A DNA stretch of 64,000 nucleotides from an uncultured delta proteobacterium (GTDB lineage Bacteria; Desulfobacterota; Binatia; Binatales; Binataceae). The DNA lies in assembly GCA_963808235.1 (NCBI GenBank), contig CAWEEQ010000004.1, positions 781,084 to 845,083 on the forward strand, read 5' to 3'. Of this stretch, positions 31,883 through 50,844 are shown one piece after another. The translations under genes and the position numbers were made by a program. Under the pieces are notes generated by a model that did no database searches, was not told where the DNA came from, and saw only the letters and a program-made list of their open reading frames with translations. Within the stretch, counting starts at the first letter, position 1. Each line of letters starts with the position of its first letter.

Positions 31883-32115
31883 GACTTGCTCGTCTTACGC
31901 TCGGCGCCTGAATCGCCGTTGGTTTGGTGTTCCGGTTCCCTGGCTACGCTCCCGCCCGCCGCGACCCATTGATCGACGACTGGCACTTCAAAGCGCAGAT
32001 CCCGTCCAACTCTAATAGCCCGCAACTGGCCTCTTCGCACCAGCCTGCGAACGGTAGCCGGATTGACATGCAGGTAGTCGGAAACCTCACGCAATGTGAG
32101 CATCCTTGCTGGCAT
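31879..32115 (-). CDS. excisionase-family (HTH_17) DNA-binding protein, third copy, convergent
   Basis: MLTLREVSDYLHVNPATVRRLVRRGQLRAIRVGRDLRFEVPVVDQWV. The start is uncertain (32115, 32103 or 32160). Its stop codon overlaps the stop of 31664-31882. Confidence 0.7.
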   Translation of the reverse strand: MPARMLTLREVSDYLHVNPATVRRLVRRGQLRAIRVGRDLRFEVPVVDQWVAAGGSVAREPEHQTNGDSGAERKTSKS

Positions 32116-32355
32116 ATGCTCGCCCCTGGCTGACTCCATTCGACCCGGATTCATCCGCAAGCTCGCAAAAGTCTCATCAGGTTTGTCCTCGCCGTTTCGG
32201 TGACCGGAGGTGGCCGGAGGTCTCTAAATCTATTTGACTGTCTAATGCGCATTATCATTCAAATTACTTGACGACGACTCATCTATTGCTTGATGACCAT
32301 CATCTGCTTTCTCAAACGTAGCAAGATTTCAAAGACTAATCAAGCCATGAAAATA

Positions 32356-32526: not shown

Positions 32527-33252
32527 ATGAAACGAAAACTATTGGTCATAGCTCTTCTGTGTTGTGCGCAGCTTCTGTTCGGATGCTCCGCGAAGGACCC
32601 GGAGGCTACCGATATCAAGGGTGTGTCGATGGCGCCGGTGTCGCCTGCCTGCCAATTCACTTCGGTCGACGACCAGTTTCGATCATACCGGATTCAGCCG
32701 GGCGACCAGCTCGACATCAGTTTTTATATGAGCCCCGAGTTTGACCAGGACCTGACCGTACGACCCGACGGCGACATCTCGATGCCGGTGGTCGGCAATA
32801 TTCACGTGCAGGGACTAACCCCGGTCGGGCTCGAGAAGAATCTCAATCAGCTCTATTCGCAGGAGTTGAAAGATCCGAAGACCACGGTCCGCATCGACAA
32901 GAGTCCAAGCCAGGTCGTGTACGTCGAGGGCCAGGTTGGCAAACCCGGCGCGGTGCCGCTGCAGCCCGGGATGACCGCGATCCAGGCGATCGCCGCGTCG
33001 GGCGGAATGAACGATAACGCCGGACCGAGCCGGGTGATTCTCATAAGACGCGACGCGTGCGGGAACGCGCACGGGCAGCCTCTCAAGCTCGACAAAGTGC
33101 TGAACCAGAAAAATAACGAAGAAGATGTGGCGCTGCTGCCTTCGGACATCGTGGTCGTACCGCGCAGCGGGATTGCCCAATTCGATCTCGACGTGAAGCA
33201 GTACGTGCGCGACGCGATGCCGGTCGAAGTCTACGCCGCGCCGCCATTTTGA
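32527..33252 (+). CDS. polysaccharide export outer-membrane lipoprotein (Wza/OPX family)
   Basis: MKRKLLVIALLCCAQLLFGCS lipobox. Poly_export motif: YRIQPGDQLDISFY...VRPDGDISMPVVGNIHVQGLT. SLBB-like: VYVEGQVGKPGAVPL. Confidence 0.85.
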   Translation: MKRKLLVIALLCCAQLLFGCSAKDPEATDIKGVSMAPVSPACQFTSVDDQFRSYRIQPGDQLDISFYMSPEFDQDLTVRPDGDISMPVVGNIHVQGLTPVGLEKNLNQLYSQELKDPKTTVRIDKSPSQVVYVEGQVGKPGAVPLQPGMTAIQAIAASGGMNDNAGPSRVILIRRDACGNAHGQPLKLDKVLNQKNNEEDVALLPSDIVVVPRSGIAQFDLDVKQYVRDAMPVEVYAAPPF

Positions 33253-33262
33253 GCCGAGTGGG

Positions 33263-34786
33263 ATGAATCAGATGAACAACGAAGCTGTAATGCAGTGGAT
33301 AGAGAAGATATTCCGGCGCCGGGCGTTGGCGCTCCGGATAGGCCTGCTGGTCTTCGGCGTAATCGCGCTGGGCTCGATCATGTGGCCCCCGAGCTACGCG
33401 TCGTCGTCGAAAATCCTGGTTCAATCCAACCGCGCGCAACTGCTGGTCTCGCCCGGGCTGAAGGAAGACGCCGCCAATCAATCGACCCAAACGGTTCCGG
33501 TGGCGGAGCAGGACCTCAACTCGGAGGTCGAGCTGCTGACCAGTCCGTTCCTTATTAAGCAGGCGCTCGCGGGGATGAAGCTCAATCAACGCAAGGGCGG
33601 CGTGATCGCGGGAATGCGAAACATTGTCGACGCGGTCGTCAGCGTCCCGACAGACGTGTACACGGTGCTGCACGGAGGCCCCAGCGCGACTGCGAACCAG
33701 GACGAGATTCAGAAAATCGTGAATCATCTCAGCGCGGACGTGATCAAGCGCTCGAATGTTATCGAGGTTTCGATTGTCTCGCACGATCCCGCGTGGGCGA
33801 AAGCGTTTCTCTCGCAATTGATGACTTCATACCTGAACCTGCACGGGCAGTTGTCGCAGAATCCGCAGGCGCAGGCATTTTTCCAGCAGCAGCGCGCGCT
33901 GCTCGATCAGCGCCTCCAGGACTCAGAGAAGGAGTTGCGCGCGGCGCAACTGCAGACCGGAATCGCTCAATTCAGCGAGCAGCAGCAGGCGCTCATCAAC
34001 CAGGTGTCCGCCGCCGAGGCGAACTATCGCACCACCAGCGCCTCTCTGGATTCCAAGCTGCAGCAGATCAGGAGCCAGGAAGCCGAGTTGAAGCAGACTC
34101 CGCAGCGTCAGACCAAGGAATCGAAGTCGGTCCAGAACATGGCGCTCAGCCAGTTGAAGCCGCAGATGCTTCAACTCGAAACCGAGCGTGCCGAGTTGTT
34201 GAGCCGCTATCAGCCCACCAGCGAGAGAATCCGTGCGATCGACGCCAAGCTGAAAGCCGGCCAAATCATCCTGAGCCGCGAAGATAAGACCAACGTCCAG
34301 GAAACCACCACCGATGTGAATCCGACCTGGCAGGCGCTCGATGCCGATTTGGCCAAAGCGCGGGCCGAAGCCGCGTCGGATAAGGCGGCGCAGACCACTG
34401 AAGCGGCGCAAGTCGCAACGTTACAGAATCAGCTCAAACAGATGACCACGGATGGAGTCGAGATCGAACGCCTGCAGCGCAAAGTCGATAGCGACAAGGA
34501 AGCGTACATGTCGTACGTGCGCAAGGGCGAGGAGGCCCGCGCGGCCGAGGCTCTTAACCAAAGCCGGATCCTGAACGTGAGCGTGGTGCAGGATCCGACC
34601 ACTCCGATCGATCCGGTGTCGCCGCGAATCCGGTTGAATCTGATCGCCGGGCTCCTGTTTGCCCTGATGCTGGCGGTCGCCGCGGCGCACTGGACCGAGG
34701 AATACGATCCCAAGATTTGTTCGACCGCGTCGATATTCAAGGACACCGGGCTCAGCACGGTCGCGATCCTCGACGACAGGTTGTAG
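33263..34786 (+). CDS. polysaccharide chain-length determinant (PCP/GumC-like, no kinase domain)
   Basis: 507 aa; N-terminal TM followed by YASSSKILVQ (Wzz-type), a long Gln/Ala-rich coiled coil, and a C-terminal TM (LNLIAGLLFALMLAVAAA). Confidence 0.8.
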   Translation: MNQMNNEAVMQWIEKIFRRRALALRIGLLVFGVIALGSIMWPPSYASSSKILVQSNRAQLLVSPGLKEDAANQSTQTVPVAEQDLNSEVELLTSPFLIKQALAGMKLNQRKGGVIAGMRNIVDAVVSVPTDVYTVLHGGPSATANQDEIQKIVNHLSADVIKRSNVIEVSIVSHDPAWAKAFLSQLMTSYLNLHGQLSQNPQAQAFFQQQRALLDQRLQDSEKELRAAQLQTGIAQFSEQQQALINQVSAAEANYRTTSASLDSKLQQIRSQEAELKQTPQRQTKESKSVQNMALSQLKPQMLQLETERAELLSRYQPTSERIRAIDAKLKAGQIILSREDKTNVQETTTDVNPTWQALDADLAKARAEAASDKAAQTTEAAQVATLQNQLKQMTTDGVEIERLQRKVDSDKEAYMSYVRKGEEARAAEALNQSRILNVSVVQDPTTPIDPVSPRIRLNLIAGLLFALMLAVAAAHWTEEYDPKICSTASIFKDTGLSTVAILDDRL

Positions 34787-34791
34787 CCGAT

Positions 34792-36375
34792 ATGTATTAC
34801 GAACACTTCAGACTTAGCGGCGCTCCCTTCGAGTTCAATCCCTCGGCGTCGGTGCTCTTCATGAGCGCGGGGCATCGCGAAGGATTGGCGGCGCTCGAGT
34901 GGGGACTGTCCGAGCCGAGCGGATTCACGATGCTGGTCGGCGAGATCGGGACCGGCAAGACCACGCTCATCTACTCGCTGCTCGCGACGCGGCATCAGGG
35001 CGTCCGGACCGCGTGGGTGGCGAATCCGCGCTTAAGCTTCGAAGACATGATGCGCCAGATTTTGGGCCAGCTGGGCGCAGTTGCGCCGGAGACGTCGGGC
35101 AAGCTCGCGCTGCTGCAGGCGTTCGACGCGCAGCTCGCGAGCCATGGGCTCGAAGAGTGCGTGGCGGTGATTGTCGACGAGGCGCAGGACCTGAGCGACG
35201 ACGCGCTGGAAGATCTGCGCCTGTTGACCAACTTTCAATCGCTCGAGCGCAGACGCCTGCAAATAGTGCTGGTCGGTCAGCTCGATCTCGCCAGAAGGCT
35301 GGGGCGGCCGCAACTGCGCCAACTGAATCAGCGAATCGGTGCGCGCGCGCTGTTGCCGACTCTGCAGGACCGGGAGATTTACGACTACGTCGAATACCGG
35401 CTGCGCTCGCGCGGCGGAGATATCGAGAACCTGTTCACGCGGAGCGCGATGCGGGAGCTCGCGCGCGCGAGCGGCGGAATCCCGCGGCGGATCAACATGC
35501 TTTGCCACAACGCGATGCTGCAGGCATACGCGGACGGCGAGCAATTCGTCGCCGAAAAGCATGTGCGTGCCGCCGCCAGCGACTACGATAATTTGCTGGT
35601 CGGCAAAGATTCGGCGTCCGCGAAGATGGCCGCATCGGCGAGCGCGGCGATGCAATCCGCGAGCACAAAGATACGGTCGGCGAGCGCGTCGATGCATTCA
35701 TCGGCGGTCTCGATGGCGCCGGCGATGCGTTCGGGCGCGACCAAGGCGGTTCGCGCGTTGAGCGCGGCGGCAACATTCGGGGCGCTGAGCTTGCTCGGCG
35801 TAGCGGTAGTCGGATTTTGCGAGATGCAGCCGGTGCACAATGATCTTTCCGCGCTGGTCAGGAAATTCGAATCGAAAGCGGCGAGTTTCAGAAGGCCAAT
35901 CGTGGTGCAGCGGGCGCCGGCGCAGTTCGTGACCGGTTCGTCCCCGGCGACCGTTCCGGCGCCGAACACAATTGGTTCGGCTCCAGCGGCCGTTCATGAC
36001 AGCACCGCCCCGGGCGCCCACGAATTGAGTACGCGCGGACACCTCAGGGGTCTTTCGGCGACTGGCCGGCGGGTTCCAGTCAAGCCGCAACCTGAAGCGA
36101 GCGCCGTTCCCAATATTTTGCCGGTGACGTTGTCGCCGGTCGGAAATATTTCCGCATCTCCGGATTCTTCGACGAAACCAGATGACGGCGCCTTGCGCAC
36201 CGACTCGACCATTTTGGTCAGGGCGGGCGACTCGCTCAGCAAGATAGCGATGAGAATCTATGGTTCGTTCGGAGCCGATGAAGTTAAGCGATTGACCGCG
36301 GCGAATCCGCAAATCAAGGACGCGAACGTGATCTATCCCGGTCAGTCTATTCACGTGCAGCAAGCTACCAAATGA
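34792..36375 (+). CDS. ExeA/GspA-like AAA ATPase with TM segment and C-terminal LysM domain
   Basis: MYYEHFRLSGAPFEFNP...GFTMLVGEIGTGKTTL (Walker A), VIVDEAQ (Walker B), TM AATFGALSLLGVAVVGF, LysM ILVRAGDSLSKIAMRIYG...NPQIKDANVIYPGQSIHV. Confidence 0.8.
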   Translation: MYYEHFRLSGAPFEFNPSASVLFMSAGHREGLAALEWGLSEPSGFTMLVGEIGTGKTTLIYSLLATRHQGVRTAWVANPRLSFEDMMRQILGQLGAVAPETSGKLALLQAFDAQLASHGLEECVAVIVDEAQDLSDDALEDLRLLTNFQSLERRRLQIVLVGQLDLARRLGRPQLRQLNQRIGARALLPTLQDREIYDYVEYRLRSRGGDIENLFTRSAMRELARASGGIPRRINMLCHNAMLQAYADGEQFVAEKHVRAAASDYDNLLVGKDSASAKMAASASAAMQSASTKIRSASASMHSSAVSMAPAMRSGATKAVRALSAAATFGALSLLGVAVVGFCEMQPVHNDLSALVRKFESKAASFRRPIVVQRAPAQFVTGSSPATVPAPNTIGSAPAAVHDSTAPGAHELSTRGHLRGLSATGRRVPVKPQPEASAVPNILPVTLSPVGNISASPDSSTKPDDGALRTDSTILVRAGDSLSKIAMRIYGSFGADEVKRLTAANPQIKDANVIYPGQSIHVQQATK

Positions 36376-36393
36376 CGAACTTAGGTGTGACCC

Positions 36394-37254
36394 ATGAGTA
36401 GATACTTTCAGGCAATGGAACGCCGCAAGAACGGAATGGTTCCGTTAACTGATTCCAGGATAGGTGATGCGAGAATCGCTGATTCCAACTTCGCTGATTC
36501 GAAGGTCGTTGAGTCGAAGATCATCGATTCCAAGATCATCGAGACCAAGACCAAGCCGTTCTCACACTCACAGGCTGTAGCGCGAACTCAGCCGATGGCG
36601 CTTCCGTCTGTTTCGGAGCCGCAAGGGTTGCTCGATACGCTCGCATGCTGCCATTCGATGCGCAGCTTGAGCGAGCAGCTGGCGGCGGCGAGCGCGCACA
36701 ATGGCCCTGCGCGAATACTCATGACCGGATGCCGGCCGGGCGACGGCGTATCCACCGTGGCTGCGGCGATGGCGCTCGACATAAGTCAGCGCCTGGCGGC
36801 GCGGACAGTGCTGGTAGAAGGACAGCCGCGAGTCACGATGATGCATCCGTTCTTCGCGCGCTCTTGCGCGCCAACTCCCGCGACGATCACGAGCGCGTCG
36901 ATCGCCGTGCAAGGAACCGGATATCCGCGGCTCGAGACGGCGCGGCCGGAGCAGTTGGCGCTAGCGGACCAACCGGCACGGCTGGTGGAAGATCTGGACG
37001 AATTACTTATGCGCTATCGCCTGGCGGTTATAGATCTCGGCGTAGTGCGTTTGGACCCACGAATGTTAGCGCTGGCGCGGCCCACCGATCCGATCCTGAT
37101 TGTGGCCCGACATCTGCATACAGATCGAGCGGAAATGATCGCGACGGCAAACATCCTGCGCTCTACCGGACATCCCGTAGCTGGGGTGATTCTGAATGGA
37201 TACAAGTCGCCGTTGCCATCGCTGGTTCGCCGCCTTGTTGGAATGGAGGAATAA
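36394..37254 (+). CDS. BY-kinase/MinD-like P-loop protein with degenerate Walker motifs
   Basis: ARILMTGCRPGDGVSTVAAAMALDISQ aligns to the S..PGEGKST Walker A of CpsD/EpsG-type kinases, but the Lys is replaced by Val. The A' box DxD is replaced (VLVEGQPR). There is no C-terminal Tyr cluster. Confidence 0.6.
   Translation: MSRYFQAMERRKNGMVPLTDSRIGDARIADSNFADSKVVESKIIDSKIIETKTKPFSHSQAVARTQPMALPSVSEPQGLLDTLACCHSMRSLSEQLAAASAHNGPARILMTGCRPGDGVSTVAAAMALDISQRLAARTVLVEGQPRVTMMHPFFARSCAPTPATITSASIAVQGTGYPRLETARPEQLALADQPARLVEDLDELLMRYRLAVIDLGVVRLDPRMLALARPTDPILIVARHLHTDRAEMIATANILRSTGHPVAGVILNGYKSPLPSLVRRLVGMEE
36451..36555 (+). repeat. 7 x 15-bp in-frame tandem repeat (pentapeptide DSKII-type)
   Basis: gattccaggataggt / gatgcgagaatcgct / gattccaacttcgct / gattcgaaggtcgtt / gagtcgaagatcatc / gattccaagatcatc / gagaccaagaccaag encodes DSRIG DARIA DSNFA DSKVV ESKII DSKII ETKTK. 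Confidence 0.9.
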
Positions 37255-37257
37255 GCA

Positions 37258-38379
37258 ATGGAAGATCTTATCTCGCACAATGGTACTCTAGCCGGTTCAC
37301 ACAACGGCATTCACGCGCCATCAAGTGTGCCTACCTACTCAACTCGGCGCCAAATGCGCGGGATTGCGATTGTTGGGCTCGGCTACTGGGGGCCCAACTG
37401 GGTGAGAAATTTTTCCCAGATACAGGGAATCGACCATGTCGTGTGCTGTGACTTCAGCCGCCCGCGGCTCGATCACATCAAGGGACGTTACCCATCGGTA
37501 GTCATTACCGACCAGCTAGACCGGGTGCTCACCGATCCCGCGATCGACGCGGTCGTAGTTGCTACGCCGGTTAACACTCACTTTGAGATAGCAAGTCGAT
37601 GCCTGAAGGCAGGTAAGTCGACGCTGGTCGAGAAGCCACTGGCTACCTCATGCGACCAGGCAGAGCTTCTAATAAAGATGGCGCGCGAGCGCGATCTGAC
37701 GCTTATGGCGGGCCACACCTTCGAGTACAGCGCGCCGGTGGTGAAGATTCGCGAGCTGATCGACAGCGGCGAGCTCGGCGATATTTTCTACATCAGCTCG
37801 GTGCGCGCGAATCTCGGGCTCTTTCGCCGCGACGTCAACGTGGCCTGGGATCTGGCTACGCACGACATCTCGATCATCCTGATGCTGCTGGGCGAGATGC
37901 CGCTTGAGGTGACTTGCCAGGGCGAGAGCCACTATCACGATCACGTCGAAGACGTTGCGCTGCTCACGCTTCGCTTTGCCAACAACGTGATCGCTTTCGT
38001 GCACGTTAGCTGGCTCGATCCGAACAAGATTCGGCGCACAACTATAGTAGGTTCGCGCAAGATGCTGGTGTACGACGACACGGCGTTGCAGGAAAAAGTC
38101 CGCGTCTACGATAAGGGCGTCACCAAGCATCCTTACTACGACACTTATGGAGACTTTCAGCTTTCATATCGTTACGGCGACGTGAATATCCCGCGGATCG
38201 ACGACCCGGAGCCGCTCAAGGTGGAATGCGATCACTTTATTGAATGCATCAAGAGCGGGATTGCACCGAACAGCGACGGACTGAGCGGACTTAGAGTAGT
38301 GAAGGTGCTGGAAGCAGCCGACCGTTCGCTCAAGAGTCACGGAAGGCCGATAGCGCTTACTCCAACCAGGGTGAACTAG
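37258..38379 (+). CDS. Gfo/Idh/MocA-family sugar-nucleotide oxidoreductase (WbpB-like)
   Basis: IAIVGLGYWGPNWVRN Rossmann start, EKPLA motif, GGAGG RBS. Confidence 0.8.
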   Translation: MEDLISHNGTLAGSHNGIHAPSSVPTYSTRRQMRGIAIVGLGYWGPNWVRNFSQIQGIDHVVCCDFSRPRLDHIKGRYPSVVITDQLDRVLTDPAIDAVVVATPVNTHFEIASRCLKAGKSTLVEKPLATSCDQAELLIKMARERDLTLMAGHTFEYSAPVVKIRELIDSGELGDIFYISSVRANLGLFRRDVNVAWDLATHDISIILMLLGEMPLEVTCQGESHYHDHVEDVALLTLRFANNVIAFVHVSWLDPNKIRRTTIVGSRKMLVYDDTALQEKVRVYDKGVTKHPYYDTYGDFQLSYRYGDVNIPRIDDPEPLKVECDHFIECIKSGIAPNSDGLSGLRVVKVLEAADRSLKSHGRPIALTPTRVN

Positions 38380-38423
38380 CACACACCACTTAGATGTAGC
38401 ACTGAAAGAATGTGAGAACTGAG

Positions 38424-38924
38424 ATGTCACCGCACGAACTACCACCCAACGTATGCGCCTCGGCCGACGTGATCCTGGGCGAGGAGGTCCAATTAGCACC
38501 TTTCGTAAATCTATACGGATGCAGCGTCGGAGACGCGTCGCGAATCGGCGCCTTCGTGGAAGTTCAGCGCGACGCGCACATCGGCAAGCGCTGCAAGATA
38601 TCGAGTCACACTTTCATTTGTTCCGGCGTCACTATTGAAGATGAGGTTTTCATCGGTCACGGGGTGCTGTTCATCAACGATCGGCATCCACGCGCGACCA
38701 ACCCCGACGGCACCTCCAAGACCCCGGACGATTGGGTGATGGAGCGCACTTACGTGCGGCGCGGCGCCTCGATTGGGAGCGGTGCGATCATCATGTGCGG
38801 CGTCGAGATTGGCGCGAGATCGATGGTCGCAGCCGGTGCGCTAGTGACCAGTGACGTTCCCGCGCGAGCAACTGTCCTAGGTATACCGGCACGTCTATAT
38901 ACCGGCCAGCGCCGGTCCGCATAG
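38424..38924 (+). CDS. left-handed beta-helix N-acetyltransferase (WbpD-like)
   Basis: Hexapeptide repeats IGAFVEV...IGKRCKI...IGHGVLF...IGSGAIIMCGVEIG...; a GTG at 38412 is an alternative start. Confidence 0.78.
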   Translation: MSPHELPPNVCASADVILGEEVQLAPFVNLYGCSVGDASRIGAFVEVQRDAHIGKRCKISSHTFICSGVTIEDEVFIGHGVLFINDRHPRATNPDGTSKTPDDWVMERTYVRRGASIGSGAIIMCGVEIGARSMVAAGALVTSDVPARATVLGIPARLYTGQRRSA

Positions 38925-38941
38925 ATCAGGAGTCGAACGAG

Positions 38942-40078
38942 ATGCCAATCAAATTTTTGGACCTCGCGGCACAGAACCGCGAAATCATGCCACAAGTCGA
39001 GCGCGGCTTCGCGGAAATCCACGAGAAGACTTCGTACGTTGGAGGCCCACAGGTGGCGGCGTTCGAAGAGGAATTTGCGAACTTCCTGGGCGCCCGCCAG
39101 GTGATCAGCGTGGCGAGCGGGACCGACGCGCTAAGACTCGCGCTGCTCGCGATCGGAATCGGGCCGGGCGACGAAGTGATCACGACTCCGATGACGTTCA
39201 TCGCGACTGCCGAAGCGATCGTGCAGACCGGCGCGCGGCCCTCGTTTGTGGATATCGATCCGAACACCGGAAATATGAGTGTTCCGGAAATCTCGCGCTA
39301 CCTCGAGCGGGGACGCTTCACAGCGCCCAACGGCCCGCGCGCGATCGTCCCGGTTCATCTCTACGGAATGCCGGCGCCGATGATCGAAATGCGCGATCTC
39401 GCGCAGGCGTGCAACCTTAAACTGATCGAGGACGCATGCCAGGCGCATGGCGCGCGCATCACTCACGACGGCCAATCGCAATATGCCGGCACGATCGGCG
39501 CGGCCGGTTGCTTCAGTTTTTATCCCGGTAAGAATCTGGGCGCGTGGGGCGAAGGCGGGGCCGTGGCGACCAATGACGAGGAGCTGGCGGCGCAGATCCG
39601 TACGTTACGCGACCACGGACGCCTTTCGCACTACGCGCACAGTGCATATGGATACAATGCGCGGCTCGACACGATGCAGGCGGCGGTACTCCGTCCGAAG
39701 CTCGAGCGCCTGGCGGAGTGGAATGCACGACGCCGGCACTTCGCGGCGCTTTATCGTGAAACTCTGCCTCACGAGGTGGAGCTGCTGTCCGAGCCCGAGG
39801 GTATCGAGTCGTGCTACCACCTGTTCGTCATCCGCAGCGAGCGGCGAGACGCGATCAGAACCGCGCTGCTGCAAAACCAGATCGAGTGCGGGATCCATTA
39901 CCCGGTTCCGCTTCATCTACAGCCGGCATGCCGCGACCTCGGATATGCGCAAGGAGATTTTCCGCACGCCGAGACGATGGCTGACACCGTGCTGTCATTG
40001 CCGATGCATCCCTTTCTGACCGAGCGCGAAGTTAAGACGGTCAGCCAGGCAGTCAAGCGCGCATTAACCACAGGTTGA
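38942..40078 (+). CDS. DegT/DnrJ/EryC1/StrS-family sugar aminotransferase (WbpE-like)
   Basis: 378 aa; SGTDALRLAL, FIATAEAI, SFYPGKNLGAWGEGGAV (PLP-Lys region). Confidence 0.88.
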   Translation: MPIKFLDLAAQNREIMPQVERGFAEIHEKTSYVGGPQVAAFEEEFANFLGARQVISVASGTDALRLALLAIGIGPGDEVITTPMTFIATAEAIVQTGARPSFVDIDPNTGNMSVPEISRYLERGRFTAPNGPRAIVPVHLYGMPAPMIEMRDLAQACNLKLIEDACQAHGARITHDGQSQYAGTIGAAGCFSFYPGKNLGAWGEGGAVATNDEELAAQIRTLRDHGRLSHYAHSAYGYNARLDTMQAAVLRPKLERLAEWNARRRHFAALYRETLPHEVELLSEPEGIESCYHLFVIRSERRDAIRTALLQNQIECGIHYPVPLHLQPACRDLGYAQGDFPHAETMADTVLSLPMHPFLTEREVKTVSQAVKRALTTG

Positions 40079-40085
40079 TAATGTT

Positions 40086-43114: not shown

Positions 43115-43115
43115 C

Positions 43116-44291
43116 ATGGCGCGAGTACTAATAATCGCGTACACGGCCTACGCGCGCGACGGACGCGTCAAGCGGCAGGCCGAAGCATTGACCAGCCGCG
43201 GCGATCGGGTTGACGCGATCTGCCTTGCCGACGGCAATGTCGCCGACACGCACGGAGTCAACGTCACCGGACTCAGGCTTCCGCGCTATCGTGGCGCAAG
43301 CAGAATTAACTACCTGCGAAGCTATATAAACTTCTTCGCCCGCGCGGCTGCGCTTGCGGTTCGACGCAGCATGAAGGAGCGCTACGATATAGTGATCGCC
43401 TGTACGATGCCCGATGCGGCAATACTAAGTGCATTACCATGTCGGTTGTTTGGATCGAAGTTAGTACTCGATGTCCACGATACCATGCCGGAGCTGTATC
43501 TCGACAAGTTTGGCGGCCGGCTGGGGCGAATCGGCGCGCGGATGCTGATGCTTCAGGAGCGCTTGAGCGCGCGACTCGCGGACCAGGTGCTGGCAGTGCA
43601 CGATTTGCACGCTGAACGCCTGCATCAATCCGGGATACCGGAACGCAAGCTGGTGGTGATTACCAACTCGCCCGATCCGCGAATTTTCCCGGTCGCGGAT
43701 TCGAATCAGCCGCGCCGAATCCGGCCGAACGATGAACCATTTTCGATCATCTGCCATGGAACAATTACCCGCAGGCTCGGGCTGGATACTGCTCTGGCGG
43801 CGTTAGCCCTGCTGCACGAGCGATTTCCTCTCATCCGGCTCAAGGTTATAGGCGCCGGCGATCATTTGAACGAGGTCAAGACTCTCAGCCGGCAACTCGG
43901 CGTCGAGTCCGCGGTCAGTTTCGAACCTCCAGTTCCGATTCAGGAACTGGCCTGCAAAATCGGCGAGGCTCACGTCGGACTGGTTCCCAACCATGCCTCG
44001 AGCGCGACGCATCTGATGCTGCCGGTCAAGCTGCTTGAATATGTGGCGGTCGGAATCCCGGTGATATGTGCTCGTTTACGAACCGTCGAGCATTACTTCG
44101 ACGAAAGATCGGTGCGTTATTTTTCTCCGAACAACGCATCGCAACTGGCGCACGCGATCGAGGATTTGTACCTCGATCCGGCGCTACGAGATAGCCTTTC
44201 GAATTCCGCGGCAAAAGTGGTTAAGAGCTTCAGCTGGCCCGTCCATAGCCAGCGCTTCTGCAATGCGGTCGATTCGCTACTCAACGTTTAG
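43116..44291 (+). CDS. glycosyltransferase family 4 (GT-B)
   Basis: 391 aa; MARVLIIAYTAYARDGRVKRQAEAL N-terminus; C-terminal E..G.P region (LLEYVAVGIPVICAR). Confidence 0.8.
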   Translation: MARVLIIAYTAYARDGRVKRQAEALTSRGDRVDAICLADGNVADTHGVNVTGLRLPRYRGASRINYLRSYINFFARAAALAVRRSMKERYDIVIACTMPDAAILSALPCRLFGSKLVLDVHDTMPELYLDKFGGRLGRIGARMLMLQERLSARLADQVLAVHDLHAERLHQSGIPERKLVVITNSPDPRIFPVADSNQPRRIRPNDEPFSIICHGTITRRLGLDTALAALALLHERFPLIRLKVIGAGDHLNEVKTLSRQLGVESAVSFEPPVPIQELACKIGEAHVGLVPNHASSATHLMLPVKLLEYVAVGIPVICARLRTVEHYFDERSVRYFSPNNASQLAHAIEDLYLDPALRDSLSNSAAKVVKSFSWPVHSQRFCNAVDSLLNV

Positions 44292-44304
44292 GAGGAGTTA
44301 TCAA

Positions 44305-45120
44305 GTGCGCAGCGCAATACCATTGGTAGTAGGCTTGGGCGAAGTCGGAAGCGCCTTGTCGCAAGTGCTGAAGGGCGACGGCCGGCGCATCCTCGAGCAC
44401 GACATCGAAAGACGCGAGTTCGACGAACCGATCAGCGTGATGCATCTGTGTTTTCCATTCACCCGGCAGGATGCTTTCGAAGCTATCGCGCTTTCCTATA
44501 TCAAGCGGTTCAAGCCGGAACTGACTATCATCAACAGCACTGTAGTTCCCGGAACCAGCCGGTCGATAGCTGAAAAAGCGTCGGCGCCGGTTGCCTATAG
44601 TCCGGTGCGCGGCAAACACATCCGAATGGCGCAGGACCTGCTGAAGTACCGCAAGTTCGTCGCTGGCACCGATGATGAGACCACGAATCGAGCTGTCGAG
44701 CATTTTCGCGAAGCCGGAATGACTACTCAGTGCATTAGCAAGTTGGAGACTCTCGAGCTTGCCAAGCTCGGTGAGACTACCTACTTCGGCGTGCTGATCG
44801 CCTTCGCACAGGAGCTCAACCGTTACGCTAATCGGGTCGATGCTGACTATGTGGAAGCGCTGGACCTGTTCGAGGAAGTCGATTTTCTGCCGCCCACGAA
44901 ATACTACCCGGGCTTCATCGGCGGTCACTGTGTGATTCCAAATATACAATTGCTGCGCACGATTGCGTCGTCGCCACTGCTCGAGGCGGTCCTCGAATCC
45001 AACCGGATGCGCGCGGGCGAGTTGGCCAACGAAGCCAAGATGGCCCTCACGCCCGAACTCAAGCCGGGCGCTGCCGCCAACGGACACAAAACGGAGTCGC
45101 AGGCTCAGCTGCGTCGCTGA
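44305..45120 (+). CDS. short NAD-binding protein related to UDP-glucose/GDP-mannose dehydrogenases
   Basis: GTG start with AGGAGG 9 nt upstream; VVGLGEVG Rossmann; LELAKLGETTYFGVLIAFAQELN and GFIGGHCVIPN resemble the central domain and catalytic Cys. The C-terminal UDP-binding domain is missing. Confidence 0.45.
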   Translation: MRSAIPLVVGLGEVGSALSQVLKGDGRRILEHDIERREFDEPISVMHLCFPFTRQDAFEAIALSYIKRFKPELTIINSTVVPGTSRSIAEKASAPVAYSPVRGKHIRMAQDLLKYRKFVAGTDDETTNRAVEHFREAGMTTQCISKLETLELAKLGETTYFGVLIAFAQELNRYANRVDADYVEALDLFEEVDFLPPTKYYPGFIGGHCVIPNIQLLRTIASSPLLEAVLESNRMRAGELANEAKMALTPELKPGAAANGHKTESQAQLRR

Positions 45121-45139
45121 CGGCAGCCAAGAAGTGAAA

Positions 45140-46570
45140 ATGGAACTCGTGCAGACAGCCAGAGTATCCAAACCGCCGGCCGCCGCGATGCTGGCCGGTG
45201 TGGCGGGGCTTGGCCTGCTCGGCTTGCTGATGCTCAACTATCCGAGCCTCGCGGCCGGCGCGGTGGTCCTTGCCGGCGGAGTCGCGGTCATTTGGGCGGC
45301 CCAGATGGTGCAGGGCAACACTGGCTACCTGCTTTGCTCGCTCCTGGTTATTGAAGAGCTGAGCGGGGCAAACTTTATCCCGCTCACACCCGATCAGCTC
45401 TACCTGGTCCGTTATCCATTGCTGGTTGCATTTTGCGGAGCCTCCGTGTGGAAGGCGCTCCATGACAAAGAGATATGGCGGGGCGGATTCCTTGATTACC
45501 TGATCTATCTTGGTTTTGGCGTTATAAGTATTTCCTATTCACTATTGCCTGGCTATTCGACCGCCAGGATTGCAGCTGCAATTCTGATGTTCATGACGAT
45601 AGTCAGAATTGCCCAAGCAGTAGCTAATCGCGAAGATATCGAGAAGCTACTCAATTGGTATCTGATCGGAACCGGAATCGTCTGGCTGGTGATACTGATC
45701 TGCTCGCTGACCATGTCTTACGATCTGATCTGGGACGTGGAAGACATGACCGGCATTGTTCGCCTGCGCGGCATCTACGGTTCTCCGAATCTGATTGGCG
45801 AAATCGCACTCCCCACCATGGGCGTGGCGGCGGTCATGTGGAACTCGGCCAGCGGATGGAAACGGGCGCTGCTCGCCGCGGAGATAATGCTGGCGGTCAC
45901 GCTCGCGATGCTGGCCGATTCGCGATCGCCATTCATCGGTTTCGGACTCGGCGGGCTCCTCTATTTGATTTGGAGATACCGGTTCCGCGCGGTGCCGATC
46001 ATTCTCGCGCTCGGAGTGGTGGGCTTCGGCCTAATTAGTCAGCTCAATCCCGAGTATCTCAGTCGTGGCGACGTTACCAGTCTCACCGGACGCACCGACA
46101 TCTGGAAGTTTGCGATCGAGAAAATCGAGCAACGTCCGCTGATCGGATATGGCTTCGAGGTCGAAGGCGAAATCATGAAGGCCCACGACTTTCCGATCTG
46201 GTGGGGACCGTGGGAGGAAGGCCCGCGCAGTTCCATCCACAGTGATTATCTGTCGAAGGCGGTCAGCCTCGGCGTCCCGGCGCTGATATTTTGGGTATTT
46301 TTCATCATCCGTCCGTGGCTCGCGCTGCTCCGGCGCAAGGACGATCCGTGGAATCTGAAACCGCTCTTGTTTCTCGTTGTCATTCCGATCCTGATTCTAG
46401 ATTTCACTGAGGCCACCGGCGACTGCCGTTATGCAGTAGGGACGATCGCGACGCTTGGTTGGGCGCTGGCGGAAAGGCAACGACTCGCGAACTTGCGCCG
46501 CCGTCCCGCGGCGCTCCAGCCGGCAGAGCCGATCAACCCGGCGACACCGCTGCTGCGGCGAGTAGGTTAA
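45140..46570 (+). CDS. O-antigen ligase/polymerase-like membrane protein (Wzy_C)
   Basis: About 476 aa from the MELVQTAR Met; more than 10 TM helices; a large loop with ADSRSPFIGFGLGGL typical of Wzy_C. Confidence 0.72.
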   Translation: MELVQTARVSKPPAAAMLAGVAGLGLLGLLMLNYPSLAAGAVVLAGGVAVIWAAQMVQGNTGYLLCSLLVIEELSGANFIPLTPDQLYLVRYPLLVAFCGASVWKALHDKEIWRGGFLDYLIYLGFGVISISYSLLPGYSTARIAAAILMFMTIVRIAQAVANREDIEKLLNWYLIGTGIVWLVILICSLTMSYDLIWDVEDMTGIVRLRGIYGSPNLIGEIALPTMGVAAVMWNSASGWKRALLAAEIMLAVTLAMLADSRSPFIGFGLGGLLYLIWRYRFRAVPIILALGVVGFGLISQLNPEYLSRGDVTSLTGRTDIWKFAIEKIEQRPLIGYGFEVEGEIMKAHDFPIWWGPWEEGPRSSIHSDYLSKAVSLGVPALIFWVFFIIRPWLALLRRKDDPWNLKPLLFLVVIPILILDFTEATGDCRYAVGTIATLGWALAERQRLANLRRRPAALQPAEPINPATPLLRRVG

Positions 46571-46584
46571 CGGATGTGGGCGAC

Positions 46585-47385
46585 ATGAGGCAGAGGACTA
46601 ATAATCTTCCGATACTGATGTATCACGCGATCTGGTCGGGCGCGGACGGTGCGATCCCCAGGACGTCGAGCATCGAGCACGCTGTAAAGGATCGTGACTT
46701 CCGCGCGCAACTCGATGCGATCGTCAGTGGCGCGTTTCACACCATCAAGCTCGCCGACCTCGAGCATCCGGTTGATGCGCCGAAGCCGCTGTTGATCACC
46801 TTCGATGACGGCCATGAAAGCGACTTCACCATCGCCGCGCCCGAGCTCGCGCGGCGAAATCTGCACGCAATCTTTTTTGTCGTATGGTCCTACCTCGGAC
46901 AGCCCGGCTATCTGAGTCGAGAACAAGTGCTCGCGTTGCGTGAGCAAGGATTCGAAATCGGTTCGCATGGACTGACCCACGTCCCGCTCAGCAAGATAAG
47001 TCCGGCGCAAGCGTCGAACGAAATCCTCGAATCGAAGCACAGACTGGAAGACTTGCTCCAGCAGCCAATCGCAGGGCTTGCGCTTCCGTTCGGCCATTAC
47101 AACGATGCGGTGCTGAAAGCCGCGTGGGCCGCCGGCTATCGCCGGGTGATGACCTCGGACTTCAGGATTGCCAATCGGGAGCATCGGATCATGCCGCGGA
47201 TGGGACCGATGGCTGAGCATACGCTGGAGGATTTCAAGTGGATGCTCGAAGCGAGTCGTGCAGCCGCGATTCGTCATCGCACGATTGAGGCGATTGGTGA
47301 GCGGTTGAAACGCTTTATCAGCTATGGAGAGGCGCTGCTGATGCGCGCCCAGAATGGGGAGGTTCTAGCCAAGCCCGAGAAATAG
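46585..47385 (+). CDS. polysaccharide deacetylase (NodB homology domain)
   Basis: LPILMYHAI, ITFDDGHESD, GFEIGSHGLTH motifs. Confidence 0.82.
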   Translation: MRQRTNNLPILMYHAIWSGADGAIPRTSSIEHAVKDRDFRAQLDAIVSGAFHTIKLADLEHPVDAPKPLLITFDDGHESDFTIAAPELARRNLHAIFFVVWSYLGQPGYLSREQVLALREQGFEIGSHGLTHVPLSKISPAQASNEILESKHRLEDLLQQPIAGLALPFGHYNDAVLKAAWAAGYRRVMTSDFRIANREHRIMPRMGPMAEHTLEDFKWMLEASRAAAIRHRTIEAIGERLKRFISYGEALLMRAQNGEVLAKPEK

Positions 47386-47410
47386 TCGGCGCTGACTGAA
47401 AACAAATAAA

Positions 47411-48277
47411 ATGCGTGAACACGAAATGGCCGAATTCTTTCGAGCGCTGGGGCACAAGATCGTCCAGACCCGGAGCTGTTTCTGGTACAGCTCGCAGCGC
47501 TTCCTCTACAAGAACCTGCCGATTCATCGCAACGTCGACCCCTCGCAGTCCGAACTCGCCAAGGTGATGTTCCGCGGGACCGCATTGGCAATTCGTTATC
47601 CGGAAACCGCCGGCGAATCGACCCCGGACGGCGGGATTTACGTTTGCGCGGACCGGAATTACGACTTCGCGTCGCTTACCGCCAATGCTCGCAGCCATAC
47701 CCGGCGTGGACTTGCGCGCAACATCGTCGAACAGGTCGATTTCAATGATCTCGCGAACAAGGCTTACCCGCTAATCCAGGAAACCAACCTGCGCCAGACC
47801 GGAAAACAGCCGATGCGCAGCGAGTCGCATTGGAGATCGTTTTGCGAACTCTCACGCCGAACGCCCGGGCTGGAGGCTTGGGCCGCGTTCGTTGACGGTG
47901 AGCTGGCCGCGTTTATCGTCGCGATGATGGCCGAGGATTGTTACTACCTTCACCTGCAAAAGAGCGCGTCGGCCCTGCTCAAGCACTATTCCAACAACGC
48001 CTTGCTGTTCACCGTGATGAAAGCGGCGCTCGCACGTCCCGAAGTCGGCTGGGTTTCCAACGGACAGATCGCGCTGGCCGCGAAAGAGGGTCTTTACCAT
48101 TTCAAGACCAGCATGGGCTTCGACATCCATCCGTTTAAAGAGCGGCTGGTTTTCAATCCGCTGATCAAGCCTGGTCTGTGGGCGGGCAGGGCGCTGACCA
48201 GCCGGCTCACGAAGGTCAATCCGGAAAATCTTTTCTGGCGGAGAGCTTCACGGGCATTCGACCTGGCGGGGGATTGA
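47411..48277 (+). CDS. FemAB/BioF2-like GNAT acyltransferase
   Basis: 288 aa; AAFVDGELAAFIVAMMAEDCYYLHLQKSASALLKHYSNNALLFTVMK...YHFKTSMGF resembles PF13480-type acyltransferases found in EPS loci. Confidence 0.5.
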   Translation: MREHEMAEFFRALGHKIVQTRSCFWYSSQRFLYKNLPIHRNVDPSQSELAKVMFRGTALAIRYPETAGESTPDGGIYVCADRNYDFASLTANARSHTRRGLARNIVEQVDFNDLANKAYPLIQETNLRQTGKQPMRSESHWRSFCELSRRTPGLEAWAAFVDGELAAFIVAMMAEDCYYLHLQKSASALLKHYSNNALLFTVMKAALARPEVGWVSNGQIALAAKEGLYHFKTSMGFDIHPFKERLVFNPLIKPGLWAGRALTSRLTKVNPENLFWRRASRAFDLAGD

Positions 48278-48439
48278 GGGCCAGTGAAGACGCATCAAAT
48301 GTCACTGGAAGGTTTGCTCGGAGTCGACGAGACGCAACACGGCCCCTGCAGGAATAGGGCGTTCGGATCAGGCACCGGTATCGTCGGTTGTGAAGGGCCC
48401 TGTATCGGAAATTATCTGAGTCCGGAGGGAACTGGCAGA

Positions 48440-48715
48440 TCAGGCTTCGACTTCCGCGGGCAGGTCTCGAAGGCATTTGCCGCAAAGCGCGTAGCACTCT
48501 TCCGGATCATCGCTCATGGCAAGAATTGCTACCACCCACGAATTGAGATCCGCGCACCGATGACAAACGAGCAAGCCACCTTCGGATCGAATCTTGAACC
48601 AGCACTCGGCGATTGTCACCGGATCTTCGATCAATTCGACGCGTACGCAACTGTCTTCAGGTTCCAAGGACGGTTCCATGACTTCTGGTGCTACGAATTT
48701 GGTGCGGCTGTTCAT
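48440..48715 (-). CDS. small hypothetical protein with CxxC...CxxC pattern, opposite strand to the EPS operon
   Basis: 91 aa from the ATG at 48715 (GAGGGG upstream); CHRC ... CGKC. Confidence 0.4.
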   Translation of the reverse strand: MNSRTKFVAPEVMEPSLEPEDSCVRVELIEDPVTIAECWFKIRSEGGLLVCHRCADLNSWVVAILAMSDDPEECYALCGKCLRDLPAEVEA

Positions 48716-48872
48716 AGTTAAACCCCTCAGCAAGGTCGCATCGAGCCCTAATCGAGCAACCATCATGCCAGTCAACCGCTTCCTTTCGCCCCGATTAAGG
48801 ACGGCAATTTGATAAGGATTGTGGGCATTGGGAAGGAAATGCCCGGTCGGCGCCAATTCGGGAGGTTTGTCG

Positions 48873-49745
48873 ATGCTGTTGGAGTCTAAAGAGGTGAAAA
48901 ATTTACGGGATTACCGGATTGAGCCTGATACGGCAATTCCGTTAAGGGTTGTTCGTCCAAGTAGAGTCAGGGAACTAACGATGTTCGAGGGAATATCGAG
49001 AGCGCCGTCTGATCATGGACCAGACGATGAACATGGGAATAGACTCCGCGGCCACCTGAAACGACGGGCCATCGATGAGATCGAACGGCTTTTCGGTTGG
49101 CTGAACAAACGCCAGCGAATCGAACCATCGGCACAACTGGTCAAGGTGAACCTGGGCAGCGGACTCTTCGTGGCTCCGGGATGGATCAACCTGGATGCCA
49201 GCGTAAAAACCGTGTTCGCGAGGCTCCCGCGTTTCGCGCTGCGCTGGACCTATCCGCTGGCGAACGTCCGGAACACGCACTCGCGCGATGAATTCGTCGC
49301 CTTGCTGCGGGATAATCGGTTTATTTTCCACAATTTGAAATATGGAATCCCGCTTCGAGATTCTTCGGTTGATTTCATTTATGCCTCCCACATGTTGCAT
49401 CACCTCTATCGTGACGACGCTTTGAAACTTCTTCGGGAGGCAATCCGGGTGCTCAAGCCAGGCGGCACCATGAGAATTGCGGTGCCAGATCTCGAACTTA
49501 TCGTCCGGCTATATCTGGAAGGGAGACGCGAGCAGGCACTGGGATATTTTTTCTATTTGCGGAGTCCAAGGAGCAACTTGAGCAGGCGCTACTATCAGTA
49601 CGATTTCACGCTCTTGAAGGTTCTTATGGAAGAAGCCGGAGCGCGGAACGTCCGACGTTGCAAGTTTCGGGAGGGCAGGGTCCCTGACCTCGAGCAGCTC
49701 GACCGGTTGTCCGAGGAGACCCTGTTCGTGGAAGGGGAACGTTAA
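48873..49745 (+). CDS. class I SAM-dependent methyltransferase
   Basis: VNLGSGLFVAPGWINLD (motif I), LKPGGTMRIAVPD. The ATG at 48873 has GGAGG 7 nt upstream. Confidence 0.78.
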   Translation: MLLESKEVKNLRDYRIEPDTAIPLRVVRPSRVRELTMFEGISRAPSDHGPDDEHGNRLRGHLKRRAIDEIERLFGWLNKRQRIEPSAQLVKVNLGSGLFVAPGWINLDASVKTVFARLPRFALRWTYPLANVRNTHSRDEFVALLRDNRFIFHNLKYGIPLRDSSVDFIYASHMLHHLYRDDALKLLREAIRVLKPGGTMRIAVPDLELIVRLYLEGRREQALGYFFYLRSPRSNLSRRYYQYDFTLLKVLMEEAGARNVRRCKFREGRVPDLEQLDRLSEETLFVEGER

Positions 49746-50718: not shown

Positions 50719-50844
50719 AAAGTTTGTTGCCGCGATCCGCGTGGAAATACTGCAACCGCGGGATCGCTTGACAGAACCTTGGCGCGCAATGTACTTTGCA
50801 TTGCAAAGCTATTTGCCGAATGGGCTCCTGGAATCGCCGACTAT

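Follow-up and report, generated by a model that had tools for sequence, protein, structure and literature searches.

A probable exosortase-independent Wzx/Wzy-type polysaccharide cassette in Binataceae-like bacteria

A co-directional, densely packed run of plus-strand genes was identified at positions 32527-49745 of a 64-kb stretch of DNA (the window) from an uncultured delta proteobacterium of the Binataceae (assembly GCA_963808235.1, contig CAWEEQ010000004.1). This run was interpreted as a self-contained, Wzx/Wzy-dependent exopolysaccharide (EPS) or capsule cassette of 16 genes in Binataceae-like soil bacteria that is independent of an exosortase, a reading to which a probability of roughly 0.7 was attached. 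Genes were picked from a listing of open reading frames (ORFs) with the aid of G-C content at third codon positions (GC3), and families were assigned with Pfam and NCBIfam under their curated cutoffs. By family or fold, the full gene set of a Wzx/Wzy pathway was present: a trio of sugar enzymes, an initiating polyprenyl-phosphate glycosylphosphotransferase (PGT), a family 4 glycosyltransferase (GT4), a Wzx flippase, a Wzy_C-family protein, a polysaccharide co-polymerase (PCP) and an outer-membrane polysaccharide export (OPX) lipoprotein. The distinctive feature of the cassette is the combination of a LysM-bearing, GspA-like ATPase with a universally dead bacterial tyrosine kinase (BY-kinase).

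A first-pass annotation of the window had equated this gene set with the TIGRFAM subfamilies that accompany the exosortase XrtA/EpsH, and had offered two explanations for the lack of an exosortase: that the gene is encoded elsewhere, or that the locus is an exosortase-independent derivative of the XrtA system. Exosortase independence is favoured here, since neither the window nor related loci contained exosortase components; the XrtA-specific premise failed.

Exosortase and PEP-CTERM components

Exosortases are defined by the motifs CxG, NxxR and HxxxG (PMC1569441). A hydropathy scan of the window identified eight ORFs with at least four transmembrane (TM) segments, of which seven were an MFS protein, a Na/H exchanger, ABC-2 and AcrB proteins, and the PGT, Wzx and Wzy proteins of the cassette. 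The eighth (50779-51465, 5 TM, 228 aa) was rejected as an exosortase, having no Pfam or NCBIfam match at E<=1 and none of the three motifs. Six unassigned multi-TM ORFs from related loci were rejected similarly; these were FUSC, BrkB, Na/H exchanger or PAP2 proteins, or belonged to no family. When the exosortase, EpsI and TIGR03016 outer-membrane protein of Desulfovibrio vulgaris plasmid pDV were used as phmmer queries against six-frame translations of the window and 41 related loci, nothing was found at E<=10. Therefore, the earlier observation that the 64 kb contain no exosortase was borne out, both by the assignment of multi-TM ORFs and by direct search.

The same was true of PEP-CTERM sorting tails, which the first-pass annotation had found in no protein of the window, three secreted mosaic proteins included. 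A combined regular-expression and hydropathy scan of stop-to-stop ORFs of at least 60 aa revealed no such tail in the window, nor did a search for the motif in the start-trimmed ORFs of 80 aa or more from the related loci. The three secreted proteins had no match to PF07589, only Big_7 and beta-helix domains. In all, no exosortase, EpsI, TIGR03016 porin or PEP-CTERM gene was found between 34 kb upstream and 29 kb downstream of the ATPase gene in the window, or within 10 kb on either side of the ATPase gene in the 41 related loci; these parts were also absent 3' of the cassette in two relatives (denoted L046 and L047). A literature search found nothing linking Binatota with exosortases.

Scores of the XrtA-associated models

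The equation of the gene set with XrtA-associated subfamilies was not upheld, as every such model either scored below its cutoff or produced no match. Run at their trusted cutoffs, the models named by the first-pass annotation, together with the deacetylase model, came out against XrtA-subfamily identity: pepcterm_export (TIGR03027) scored 121.6 bits against a cutoff of 180, pepcterm_ChnLen (TIGR03007) 100.6 against 278.85, pepcterm_ATPase (TIGR03015) 208.3 against 324.5, pepcterm_TyrKin (TIGR03018) 16.8 against 230.65, EpsB_2 (TIGR03013) 168.4 against 393.35, PEP_O_lig_1 (TIGR03097) 25.1 against 188.1, and pepcterm_polyde (TIGR03006) 24.9 against 276.2, while pepcterm_femAB (TIGR03019) gave no match at E<=1. 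The glycosyltransferase models stp2 and stp3 scored 29.5 and 49.6 bits, with cutoffs above 400.

TIGR03015 was calibrated with annotated proteins from plasmid records, located by tblastn. The ATPase of the D. vulgaris Hildenborough XrtA locus scored 427.7 bits and its counterpart from a Sphingomonas XrtA locus 317.8 bits; GspA of the Ideonella type II secretion system (T2SS), encoded beside gspB, scored 282.6 bits, and the ATPase of the EPS locus on Roseobacter plasmid pTB2 scored 258.1 bits. The window ATPase fell below all four controls, including the T2SS protein. In each of the proteins compared, the ATPase domain matched a single NCBIfam model, TIGR03015; since this applied to T2SS GspA and the other ATPase domains too, a best match to TIGR03015 says nothing about exosortases. 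Similarly, the OPX, PCP and kinase proteins of pTB2 had pepcterm_* models as their best matches, all sub-cutoff, and no exosortase was annotated in the 25 kb inspected. For annotation purposes, a best hit to a pepcterm_* model is no evidence for an exosortase system. Descent from the XrtA/EpsH system was not supported, because its XrtA-specific premise fails: the models score below their cutoffs and the best match is uninformative. The evidence supports parallel use of common Wzx/Wzy export parts.

Comparison with XrtA loci

Both the cassette and XrtA loci (D. vulgaris Hildenborough pDV and Sphingomonas xrtA; Methylobacillus eps or zooglan type) are co-directional clusters in which a short OPX and a stand-alone PCP are accompanied by an ExeA-family ATPase and a separate kinase-like protein; a DegT aminotransferase, PGT, flippase and Wzy_C/O-antigen-ligase-family protein are also common to them, as are a deacetylase and a FemAB-fold protein. 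XrtA loci additionally encode the exosortase itself, either EpsI or an amidotransferase, and, beside the ATPase, a large protein that is outer-membrane or hypothetical; pDV has PEP-CTERM genes as well. The window had no exosortase or PEP-CTERM cargo, and among its ORFs scanned (small ORFs being left unscanned) there was no TIGR03016 outer-membrane protein, EpsI or amidotransferase, nor any PrsK/R/T-type gene for a sigma-54 activator, sensor histidine kinase or stand-alone TPR protein. The order of the ATPase and kinase genes was swapped. XrtA-locus ATPases had no TM segment and no NCBIfam LysM match at E<=1e-5, whereas the window ATPase has a TM segment and LysM; and XrtA-locus kinases keep the Walker A lysine and tyrosine cluster that the window homologue lacks.

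Several points weigh against an exosortase-independent cassette, and some of them would suit a split system, in which a true EPS locus of the XrtA/PEP-CTERM type is served by exosortase, EpsI and PEP-CTERM cargo genes located elsewhere in the genome. The best NCBIfam matches of the OPX, PCP and ATPase proteins were pepcterm_export, pepcterm_ChnLen and pepcterm_ATPase, respectively. Gene content parallels that of the D. vulgaris pDV and Sphingomonas XrtA loci in its export, chain-length, kinase-like and ExeA-like ATPase proteins, and in the pairing of a deacetylase with a FemAB-fold protein. The TIGR03015 cutoffs are strict, as the genuine Sphingomonas XrtA-locus ATPase falls just short of them at 317.8 bits, and Sphingomonadales genomes have been reported that possess an exosortase/PEP-CTERM system without the xrtA-containing exoPS cluster described in the same work (preprint 10.64898/2025.12.21.693542), which was counted in favour of a split system. 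The absence of an exosortase applies to the 64-kb window and the related loci rather than to the whole source genome; in D. vulgaris, whose XrtA locus is bona fide, some 18 kb separate the ATPase from the exosortase 3' of it, more than the 10 kb on either side that were viewed in most related loci. Further points concern the cassette itself. No candidate for a beta-barrel porin partner of the OPX protein was seen among the annotated window ORFs, the sole probe being the TIGR03016 outer-membrane protein of D. vulgaris Hildenborough, with no Wzp seed. The sugar enzymes were assigned to families for which they score below equivalog cutoffs, and polymer composition is deduced from these assignments only; the roles proposed below for the ATPase, pseudo-kinase and modification enzymes are analogies.

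A split system was nevertheless judged unlikely. Each of the nine XrtA-subfamily models fails, in most cases by a wide margin, and T2SS GspA outscores the window ATPase on TIGR03015. The search for an exosortase, EpsI, TIGR03016 protein or PEP-CTERM tail was negative across the 64 kb, the 41 related loci and the 3' flanks of relatives, and the Prs-type genes were likewise missing among the window ORFs scanned. The kinase homologue, unlike those associated with XrtA, appears from its sequence to be catalytically dead. Finally, Haft et al. (2006) noted that the accessory EPS families have close homologues in genomes that are PEP-CTERM-negative, with EpsH alone being specific to PEP-CTERM genomes and diagnostic (PMC1569441).

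The EPS locus of Roseobacter denitrificans pTB2, which includes rhamnose genes, provided a second comparison. There, an ExeA-like ATPase, a chain-length determinant and a CpsD-type kinase adjoin one another as in the window, with an OPX protein and a sugar transferase nearby. It differs in that the ATPase is 293 aa long without TM or LysM, the kinase has an intact Walker A motif (GKT) and the sugar pathway is rfbABCD. A rhomboid-family intramembrane protease gene was observed in pTB2 (L044, 5247-5936), separated from the OPX gene by one hypothetical gene; given this proximity, a sorting system of rhombosortase type, not an exosortase, is possible there.

Export, synthesis and assembly of the polymer

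The types of protein named by the first-pass annotation were recovered: the OPX protein, a stand-alone PCP, the ATPase beginning MYYEHFRL...GEIGTGKTT at 34792, a large PGT, a Wzy_C/O-antigen-ligase-family protein and a polysaccharide deacetylase of carbohydrate esterase family 4 (CE4). That list was correct but short of seven genes, encoding the Gfo/Idh/MocA, acetyltransferase, DegT, Wzx, GT4, UDPG_MGDP_dh-like and methyltransferase proteins; it also omitted the TM segment and C-terminal LysM domain of the ATPase.

The cassette begins with the OPX lipoprotein (32527..33252, +), which matched Pfam Poly_export (76.6, cutoff 28) and SLBB_2 (46.3). The protein is 246 aa long, or 241 aa from the ATG at 32527, with the lipobox LLFGC and the C-terminus ...AAPPF. 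It comprises Poly_export and one SLBB domain, with no further Pfam domain after SLBB, and has no C-terminal helix to span the outer membrane. In about 30 homologues the C-terminus is likewise short and hydrophobic or aromatic. Class-3 OPX proteins are a short type that needs a separate beta-barrel porin (PMC12819527), and the window OPX fits this type by its sequence. Lacking an outer-membrane-spanning part of its own, it would therefore need a beta-barrel porin encoded elsewhere. The Class-3 pathways of Myxococcus xanthus (WzaB-WzcB-WzpB) resemble the window in combining a short lipidated OPX, lacking an outer-membrane-spanning domain, with a PCP. The OPX C-terminus is comparable, in its hydrophobic or aromatic character, with the porin-binding motif of WzaB (Phe203-Phe204). 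The window yielded no gene for a beta-barrel porin of the Wzp type. To our knowledge, the M. xanthus pathways lack a GspA-like ATPase.

The PCP follows immediately (33263..34786, +; Pfam GNVR 33.2, cutoff 27.7). It has no kinase domain; TM segments at residues 22-40 and 456-474 enclose a periplasmic domain of about 415 aa and leave a cytoplasmic tail of 33 aa.

Three consecutive plus-strand genes encode the sugar enzymes. The first product (37258..38379) is a Gfo/Idh/MocA oxidoreductase and candidate sugar-nucleotide 3-dehydrogenase, with UDP-GlcNAc 3-dehydrogenase as its best NCBIfam match (186 bits, sub-cutoff). The second (38412..38924) is a left-handed beta-helix (hexapeptide) N-acetyltransferase of the type acting on 3-amino sugars; it scored 74.9 on the NCBIfam NeuD/PglB/VioB model, below cutoff, and its best sequence matches in PDB were a WxcM-like protein (4mzu), an acetyltransferase of lipopolysaccharide (LPS) biosynthesis (3mqg) and QdtC. 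The third (38942..40078) is a DegT-family sugar aminotransferase of the C-3 type, sub-cutoff in NCBIfam, with PDB matches that included QdtB, WbpE and 2oga (250-330 bits). Together, the trio suggests that a 3-acetamido-3-deoxy sugar is made in nucleotide-activated form, the UDP-GlcNAc3NAc type being probable. Enzymes of these three classes are also encoded side by side in the WbpB/WbpE/WbpD (WlbA/C/B) pathway to 2,3-diacetamido-2,3-dideoxy sugars; the window differs in that all three enzymes score below NCBIfam equivalog cutoffs and the dehydrogenase matches only generic Gfo/Idh/MocA proteins in PDB.

Assembly would begin with the large PGT (40086..41600, +), a five-TM protein that exceeded the cutoff of TIGR03025 EPS_sugtrans (342.4, cutoff 295.55) and would prime polyprenyl phosphate. 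The unit would then be extended by the GT4 protein (43116..44291, +), which had a GT4-type match in NCBIfam; its orthologues in two relatives (L001 and L002) bear Glycos_transf_1 and Glyco_transf_4. This is the sole glycosyltransferase of the cassette, and with one PGT and one GT4 only, the repeat unit may be small. Between these genes lies that of the Wzx-type flippase (41600..43114, +; 504 aa, about 10 TM), a member of the multidrug/oligosaccharidyl-lipid/polysaccharide (MOP) superfamily that matched an NCBIfam MOP flippase model at E=1e-46, below the equivalog cutoff; orthologues in the same two relatives bear Polysacc_synt. The multi-pass Wzy_C-family protein (45140..46570, +; about 10 TM; Pfam Wzy_C 71.6, cutoff 31.7) is likely the Wzy polymerase, with the proviso that its sequence does not separate a polymerase from a ligase.

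This last ambiguity raises the alternative of an LPS O-antigen locus, with the Wzy_C protein as a WaaL-type ligase and the PCP as a Wzz-type chain-length regulator. The Wzy_C family takes in O-antigen ligases, and the stand-alone PCP of the cassette, which has no kinase domain, is accompanied by a PGT and a Wzx flippase. The aminotransferase matched WbpE in PDB, and 3-acetamido sugars of the WbpB/E/D type are well known from O-antigens. Such a locus was considered quite improbable. An OPX protein and a BY-kinase partner are hallmarks of capsule and EPS (PCP-2/OPX) pathways, while O-antigen assembly uses Lpt; here the OPX gene is the first of the cassette, and a BY-kinase-fold partner is encoded in it along with the PCP. 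Moreover, the Wzy_C protein is needed as the polymerase, because no other Wzy candidate is present. An EPS or capsule cassette thus remained the preferred reading.

Modification of the polymer

The 3' part of the cassette encodes putative modification enzymes. The CE4 deacetylase (46585..47385, +; Pfam Polysacc_deac_1 78.9), for which neither a signal peptide nor a TM segment was predicted, would free an amine by de-N-acetylation. The next gene (47411..48277, +) encodes a protein with tandem GCN5-related N-acetyltransferase (GNAT) domains that matched Pfam Acetyltransf_6 (23.7, cutoff 22) and no NCBIfam model at E<=1. It is clade-restricted, with only 87 homologues. Its AlphaFold2 (AF2) model had a mean confidence (pLDDT) of 90.6, and Foldseek aligned it with Sbb17/Sba18, the MprF C-domain and FemX (E about 1e-9, TM-score 0.56-0.62), although sequence identity to the solved aminoacyl-tRNA-dependent transferases was 9-14%. 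The description of this protein as a FemAB-like acyltransferase was thus apt as regards its tandem-GNAT/FemX fold and wrong as regards membership of TIGR03019. By analogy, this enzyme would re-acylate the freed amine, possibly with an amino acid from aminoacyl-tRNA, and the deacetylase and FemX-fold pair therefore predicts an amino-acylated amino-sugar polymer. A further decoration would be added by the methyltransferase at the end of the cassette (48981..49745, +; Pfam Methyltransf_11 41.6), which is S-adenosylmethionine-dependent and has an uncertain start (alternative ATG at 48873).

A gap of about 700 nt with low G-C content (48278-48980) separates the tandem-GNAT and methyltransferase genes, which are only 35 nt apart in L047. 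A plus-strand ORF in this gap (48284-48721) was rejected as a gene, having low GC3 and no family match; the conserved feature there is an ORF on the opposite strand (48440-48715, 91 aa), Cys-rich (CHRC...CGKC), and in L046, the nearest relative, a 91-aa ORF is likewise placed. A weak inverted repeat of 12 nt (48216 and 48911) brackets the gap, which may be a small insertion.

A further cassette gene encodes a short UDPG_MGDP_dh-like protein of 271 aa (44305..45120, +) from a GTG start behind AGGAGG, with a match to the central UDPG_MGDP_dh domain of Pfam (35.6). On TIGR03026 it scored 75.4 against a cutoff of 189.8 and aligned only to model positions 112-308. A Rossmann-like GLGEVG motif was observed at the N-terminus, with the central part of a UDP-glucose/GDP-mannose dehydrogenase only. 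The possibility that a longer ORF of 350 aa (44068-45120) is a truncated pseudogene was rejected, as relatives keep a version of 270-271 aa with its own ribosome-binding site and GTG start. The 271-aa protein is not a pseudogene, since its length and position are kept in all close relatives.

The GspA-like ATPase

The product of 34792..36375 (+) is a GspA/ExeA-like ATPase, comprising AAA_22 (79.4), one TM segment and a C-terminal LysM domain (28.0). Its Walker A (GEIGTGKTT) and Walker B (VDEAQ) motifs are both intact, and the AAA+ domain is highly conserved (alignment A1). The TM segment, at approximately residues 322-343, is separated from the conserved LysM domain by a periplasmic linker of some 130 aa with little conservation. 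A sequence search of PDB with this protein returned matches in the LysM region only. Among five ExeA-family proteins compared, only the window protein and T2SS GspA had a TM segment after the AAA domain; GspA was also the closest of these in sequence (39.7% identity, 174 bits), the XrtA-locus ATPases being 33-35% identical (144-149 bits).

GspA has been described as a protein in which a TM segment joins an AAA+ domain to a periplasmic domain that binds peptidoglycan (PF01471), and it has been proposed to help secretins pass the peptidoglycan mesh (PMC9239104). The window ATPase shares the layout of GspA/ExeA of T2SS (Aeromonas, Vibrio and the Ideonella comparator): an AAA+ ATPase in the cytoplasm, a single TM segment and a peptidoglycan-binding module in the periplasm. 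Its module is LysM (PF01476, 28 bits) rather than PG_binding_1 (PF01471); the cysteine-peptidase-like region is missing, and the gene sits between those of the PCP and the pseudo-kinase within a polysaccharide cassette. By analogy, the ATPase probably anchors a trans-envelope export complex to peptidoglycan, or helps to thread the complex through it, using ATP.

It might be argued that the protein is an assembly factor of the GspA/MshM type, belonging to a T2SS or pilus, which is merely housed in the EPS cluster and serves a secretin elsewhere. Its best pairwise match is indeed a GspA encoded beside gspB, JGI annotations of homologues read 'ExeA' or 'MshM', and the architecture is equal except for the peptidoglycan-binding module. 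This is very improbable given the genomic context: the place of the ATPase gene between the PCP and pseudo-kinase genes is kept in about 30 loci, down to 40% identity; the window and the annotated related loci were both devoid of gspB and secretin genes; and ExeA-like ATPases are embedded in further EPS loci, namely those of XrtA systems and Roseobacter pTB2. A function in polysaccharide export therefore remained preferred for the ATPase.

The BY-kinase-fold pseudo-kinase

The gene at 36394..37254 (+) encodes a protein of 286 aa that matched TIGR03018 and TIGR01007 (24.1, cutoff 108) below their cutoffs and was assigned by fold. Its AF2 model had a pLDDT of 73 overall; the folded domain was mostly at 80-95, with low values in a loop at about residues 141-170 (59-69) and in the last 20 residues (about 58). 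The top Foldseek matches were the kinase domains of Wzc, CapAB (CapB), VpsO, BceF and Etk (E 6e-9 to 1e-7). The first-pass annotation had called this a CpsD/EpsG-like P-loop protein; the BY-kinase fold agrees with that description, and the P-loop lysine is missing. Walker A reads GDGVST, in which the lysine is replaced, Walker A' is degenerate (VLVEGQPR), and the last 25 residues contain one tyrosine, with no C-terminal tyrosine cluster.

These losses are not peculiar to the window. A canonical Walker A motif occurred in none of the 120 listed homologues, 110 of which have V, A, T or L at the lysine position, and only one of the 120 has a cluster of three or more tyrosines; the degenerate Walker A' is a trait of the subgroup to which the window belongs. 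By comparison, the comparator kinases from XrtA loci and Roseobacter retain GK[ST], and two XrtA-locus kinases also have tyrosine-rich tails. Judged from the modelled fold and these residues, the product is a conserved pseudo-kinase. By analogy, a scaffolding role without catalysis, on the cytoplasmic tail of the PCP, is probable.

Export through PCP and OPX proteins is normally driven by a cycle of tyrosine autophosphorylation. In this clade an intact GspA-like ATPase is always encoded between the PCP and the pseudo-kinase, and the autophosphorylation cycle may have been swapped for an ATP-driven cycle of the peptidoglycan-tethered, LysM-bearing ATPase. This proposal is speculative and unlikely to prove correct. 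If true, the exchange would represent a novel means of powering trans-envelope polysaccharide export in a Wzx/Wzy system and of anchoring its machinery to the wall, and it could hint at what the ExeA-like ATPases of XrtA and other EPS loci, which are uncharacterised, contribute. The configuration of Class-3 OPX, PCP, dead BY-kinase and peptidoglycan-binding ATPase could be informative about the passage of export complexes across the cell wall and about the function of ExeA-like ATPases in many EPS loci. Current models are not overturned; the cassette is a useful variant rather than a surprise.

Conservation among relatives

Homologues of the ATPase numbered more than 600 in databases, and the full-length ones among those listed nearly all combined AAA_22 with LysM. 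A scan of species-representative genomes produced 36 loci, nearly all from metagenome-assembled genomes (MAGs) labelled Candidatus Binataceae/Binatus, 'uncultured delta proteobacterium' or 'proteobacterium'; one was labelled Acidiferrales. The core order, OPX-PCP-ATPase-pseudokinase-Gfo-acetyltransferase-DegT-PGT-Wzx-GT4, was kept in about 30 loci, down to about 40% identity by local BLAST. At the 3' end, L046 and L047 retained the order deacetylase, tandem-GNAT, methyltransferase and Crp-type regulator, after which synteny was lost; their methyltransferase orthologues, of 252-254 aa, follow the tandem-GNAT gene. The cassette is one of few describable conserved surface-polymer loci for Binataceae-like bacteria, an uncultured soil lineage.

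Some Binataceae-like MAGs held a second locus with a divergent ATPase (pairs L022/L032, L027/L035 and L028/L036), the divergent copies being 36-51% identical to the window ATPase and the others 41-81%. Both loci bear the cassette in two of the three pairs (L022/L032 and L027/L035), while L028 has the ATPase homologue only. In L022 and L031, where the view is limited to 10 kb around the ATPase, Wzx is followed by a FemAB protein closer to the XrtA type (E 1e-16 to 1e-20 against the D. vulgaris protein). A decayed module was seen at 9130-11422 of L039/L040 (GCA_027402805.1), where the PCP is split into Wzz and GNVR fragments and followed by an intact ATPase-LysM gene; it has no sugar genes and is flanked by IS1595 and IS110 transposases.

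Flanking genes

Two small DNA-binding proteins of the HTH_17 family are encoded 5' of the cassette, one on the plus strand (31097..31399; 49.5 bits) and one divergent from the cassette on the minus strand (31879..32160; 43.3 bits); the pair occupies an equivalent position in L001 and L002. The other genes 5' of the cassette have housekeeping or regulatory functions and are unrelated to it. No regulatory RNA was found with Rfam between 29.5 and 53.5 kb. The 3' border is marked by a Crp/Fnr-type regulator (49885..50718, +; Pfam HTH_Crp_2 42.5, with cNMP_binding), a position shared by L046 and L047. Further downstream lies uppS (51861..52622, +; TIGR00055 221.2, cutoff 109.55), encoding an undecaprenyl/decaprenyl diphosphate synthase and putative supplier of the lipid carrier; a Prenyltransf gene was present at this position in the closest relative, L046, and not in L047.

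Between the Crp/Fnr-type gene and uppS, the gene of the 5-TM protein (50779-51465) overlaps that of an HTH_34 winged-helix regulator (51434-51835, +), and this pair is kept just 5' of uppS in L046. The gene after uppS (52619-53434, +), also kept in L046, encodes a protein of 271 aa without a family match, in which E..H motifs found by eye (EEQRH and EEIAH) recall a di-iron or ferritin-like protein.

The three secreted or membrane-anchored proteins mentioned above are paralogues with Big_7 and Beta_helix/DUF1565 domains (53811-55274, 55773-57860 and 58014-60323, +). The 769-aa paralogue is a chimera: its N-terminus resembles the 695-aa protein (75% over 120 aa, 96% over 98 aa), and its C-terminal beta-helix resembles the 487-aa protein (66% over 447 aa). 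An orthologue bears Pel9A-like_beta_helix. Since homologues adjoin the cassette in L003, L019, L030 and L046, these proteins may be EPS lyases or processing enzymes, not sorted cargo. Elsewhere in the window, a minus-strand gene unrelated to the cassette (7406-10843) encodes a protein of 1145 aa that combines a double zinc-ribbon with adenylate/guanylate cyclase, AAA_16 and TPR domains.

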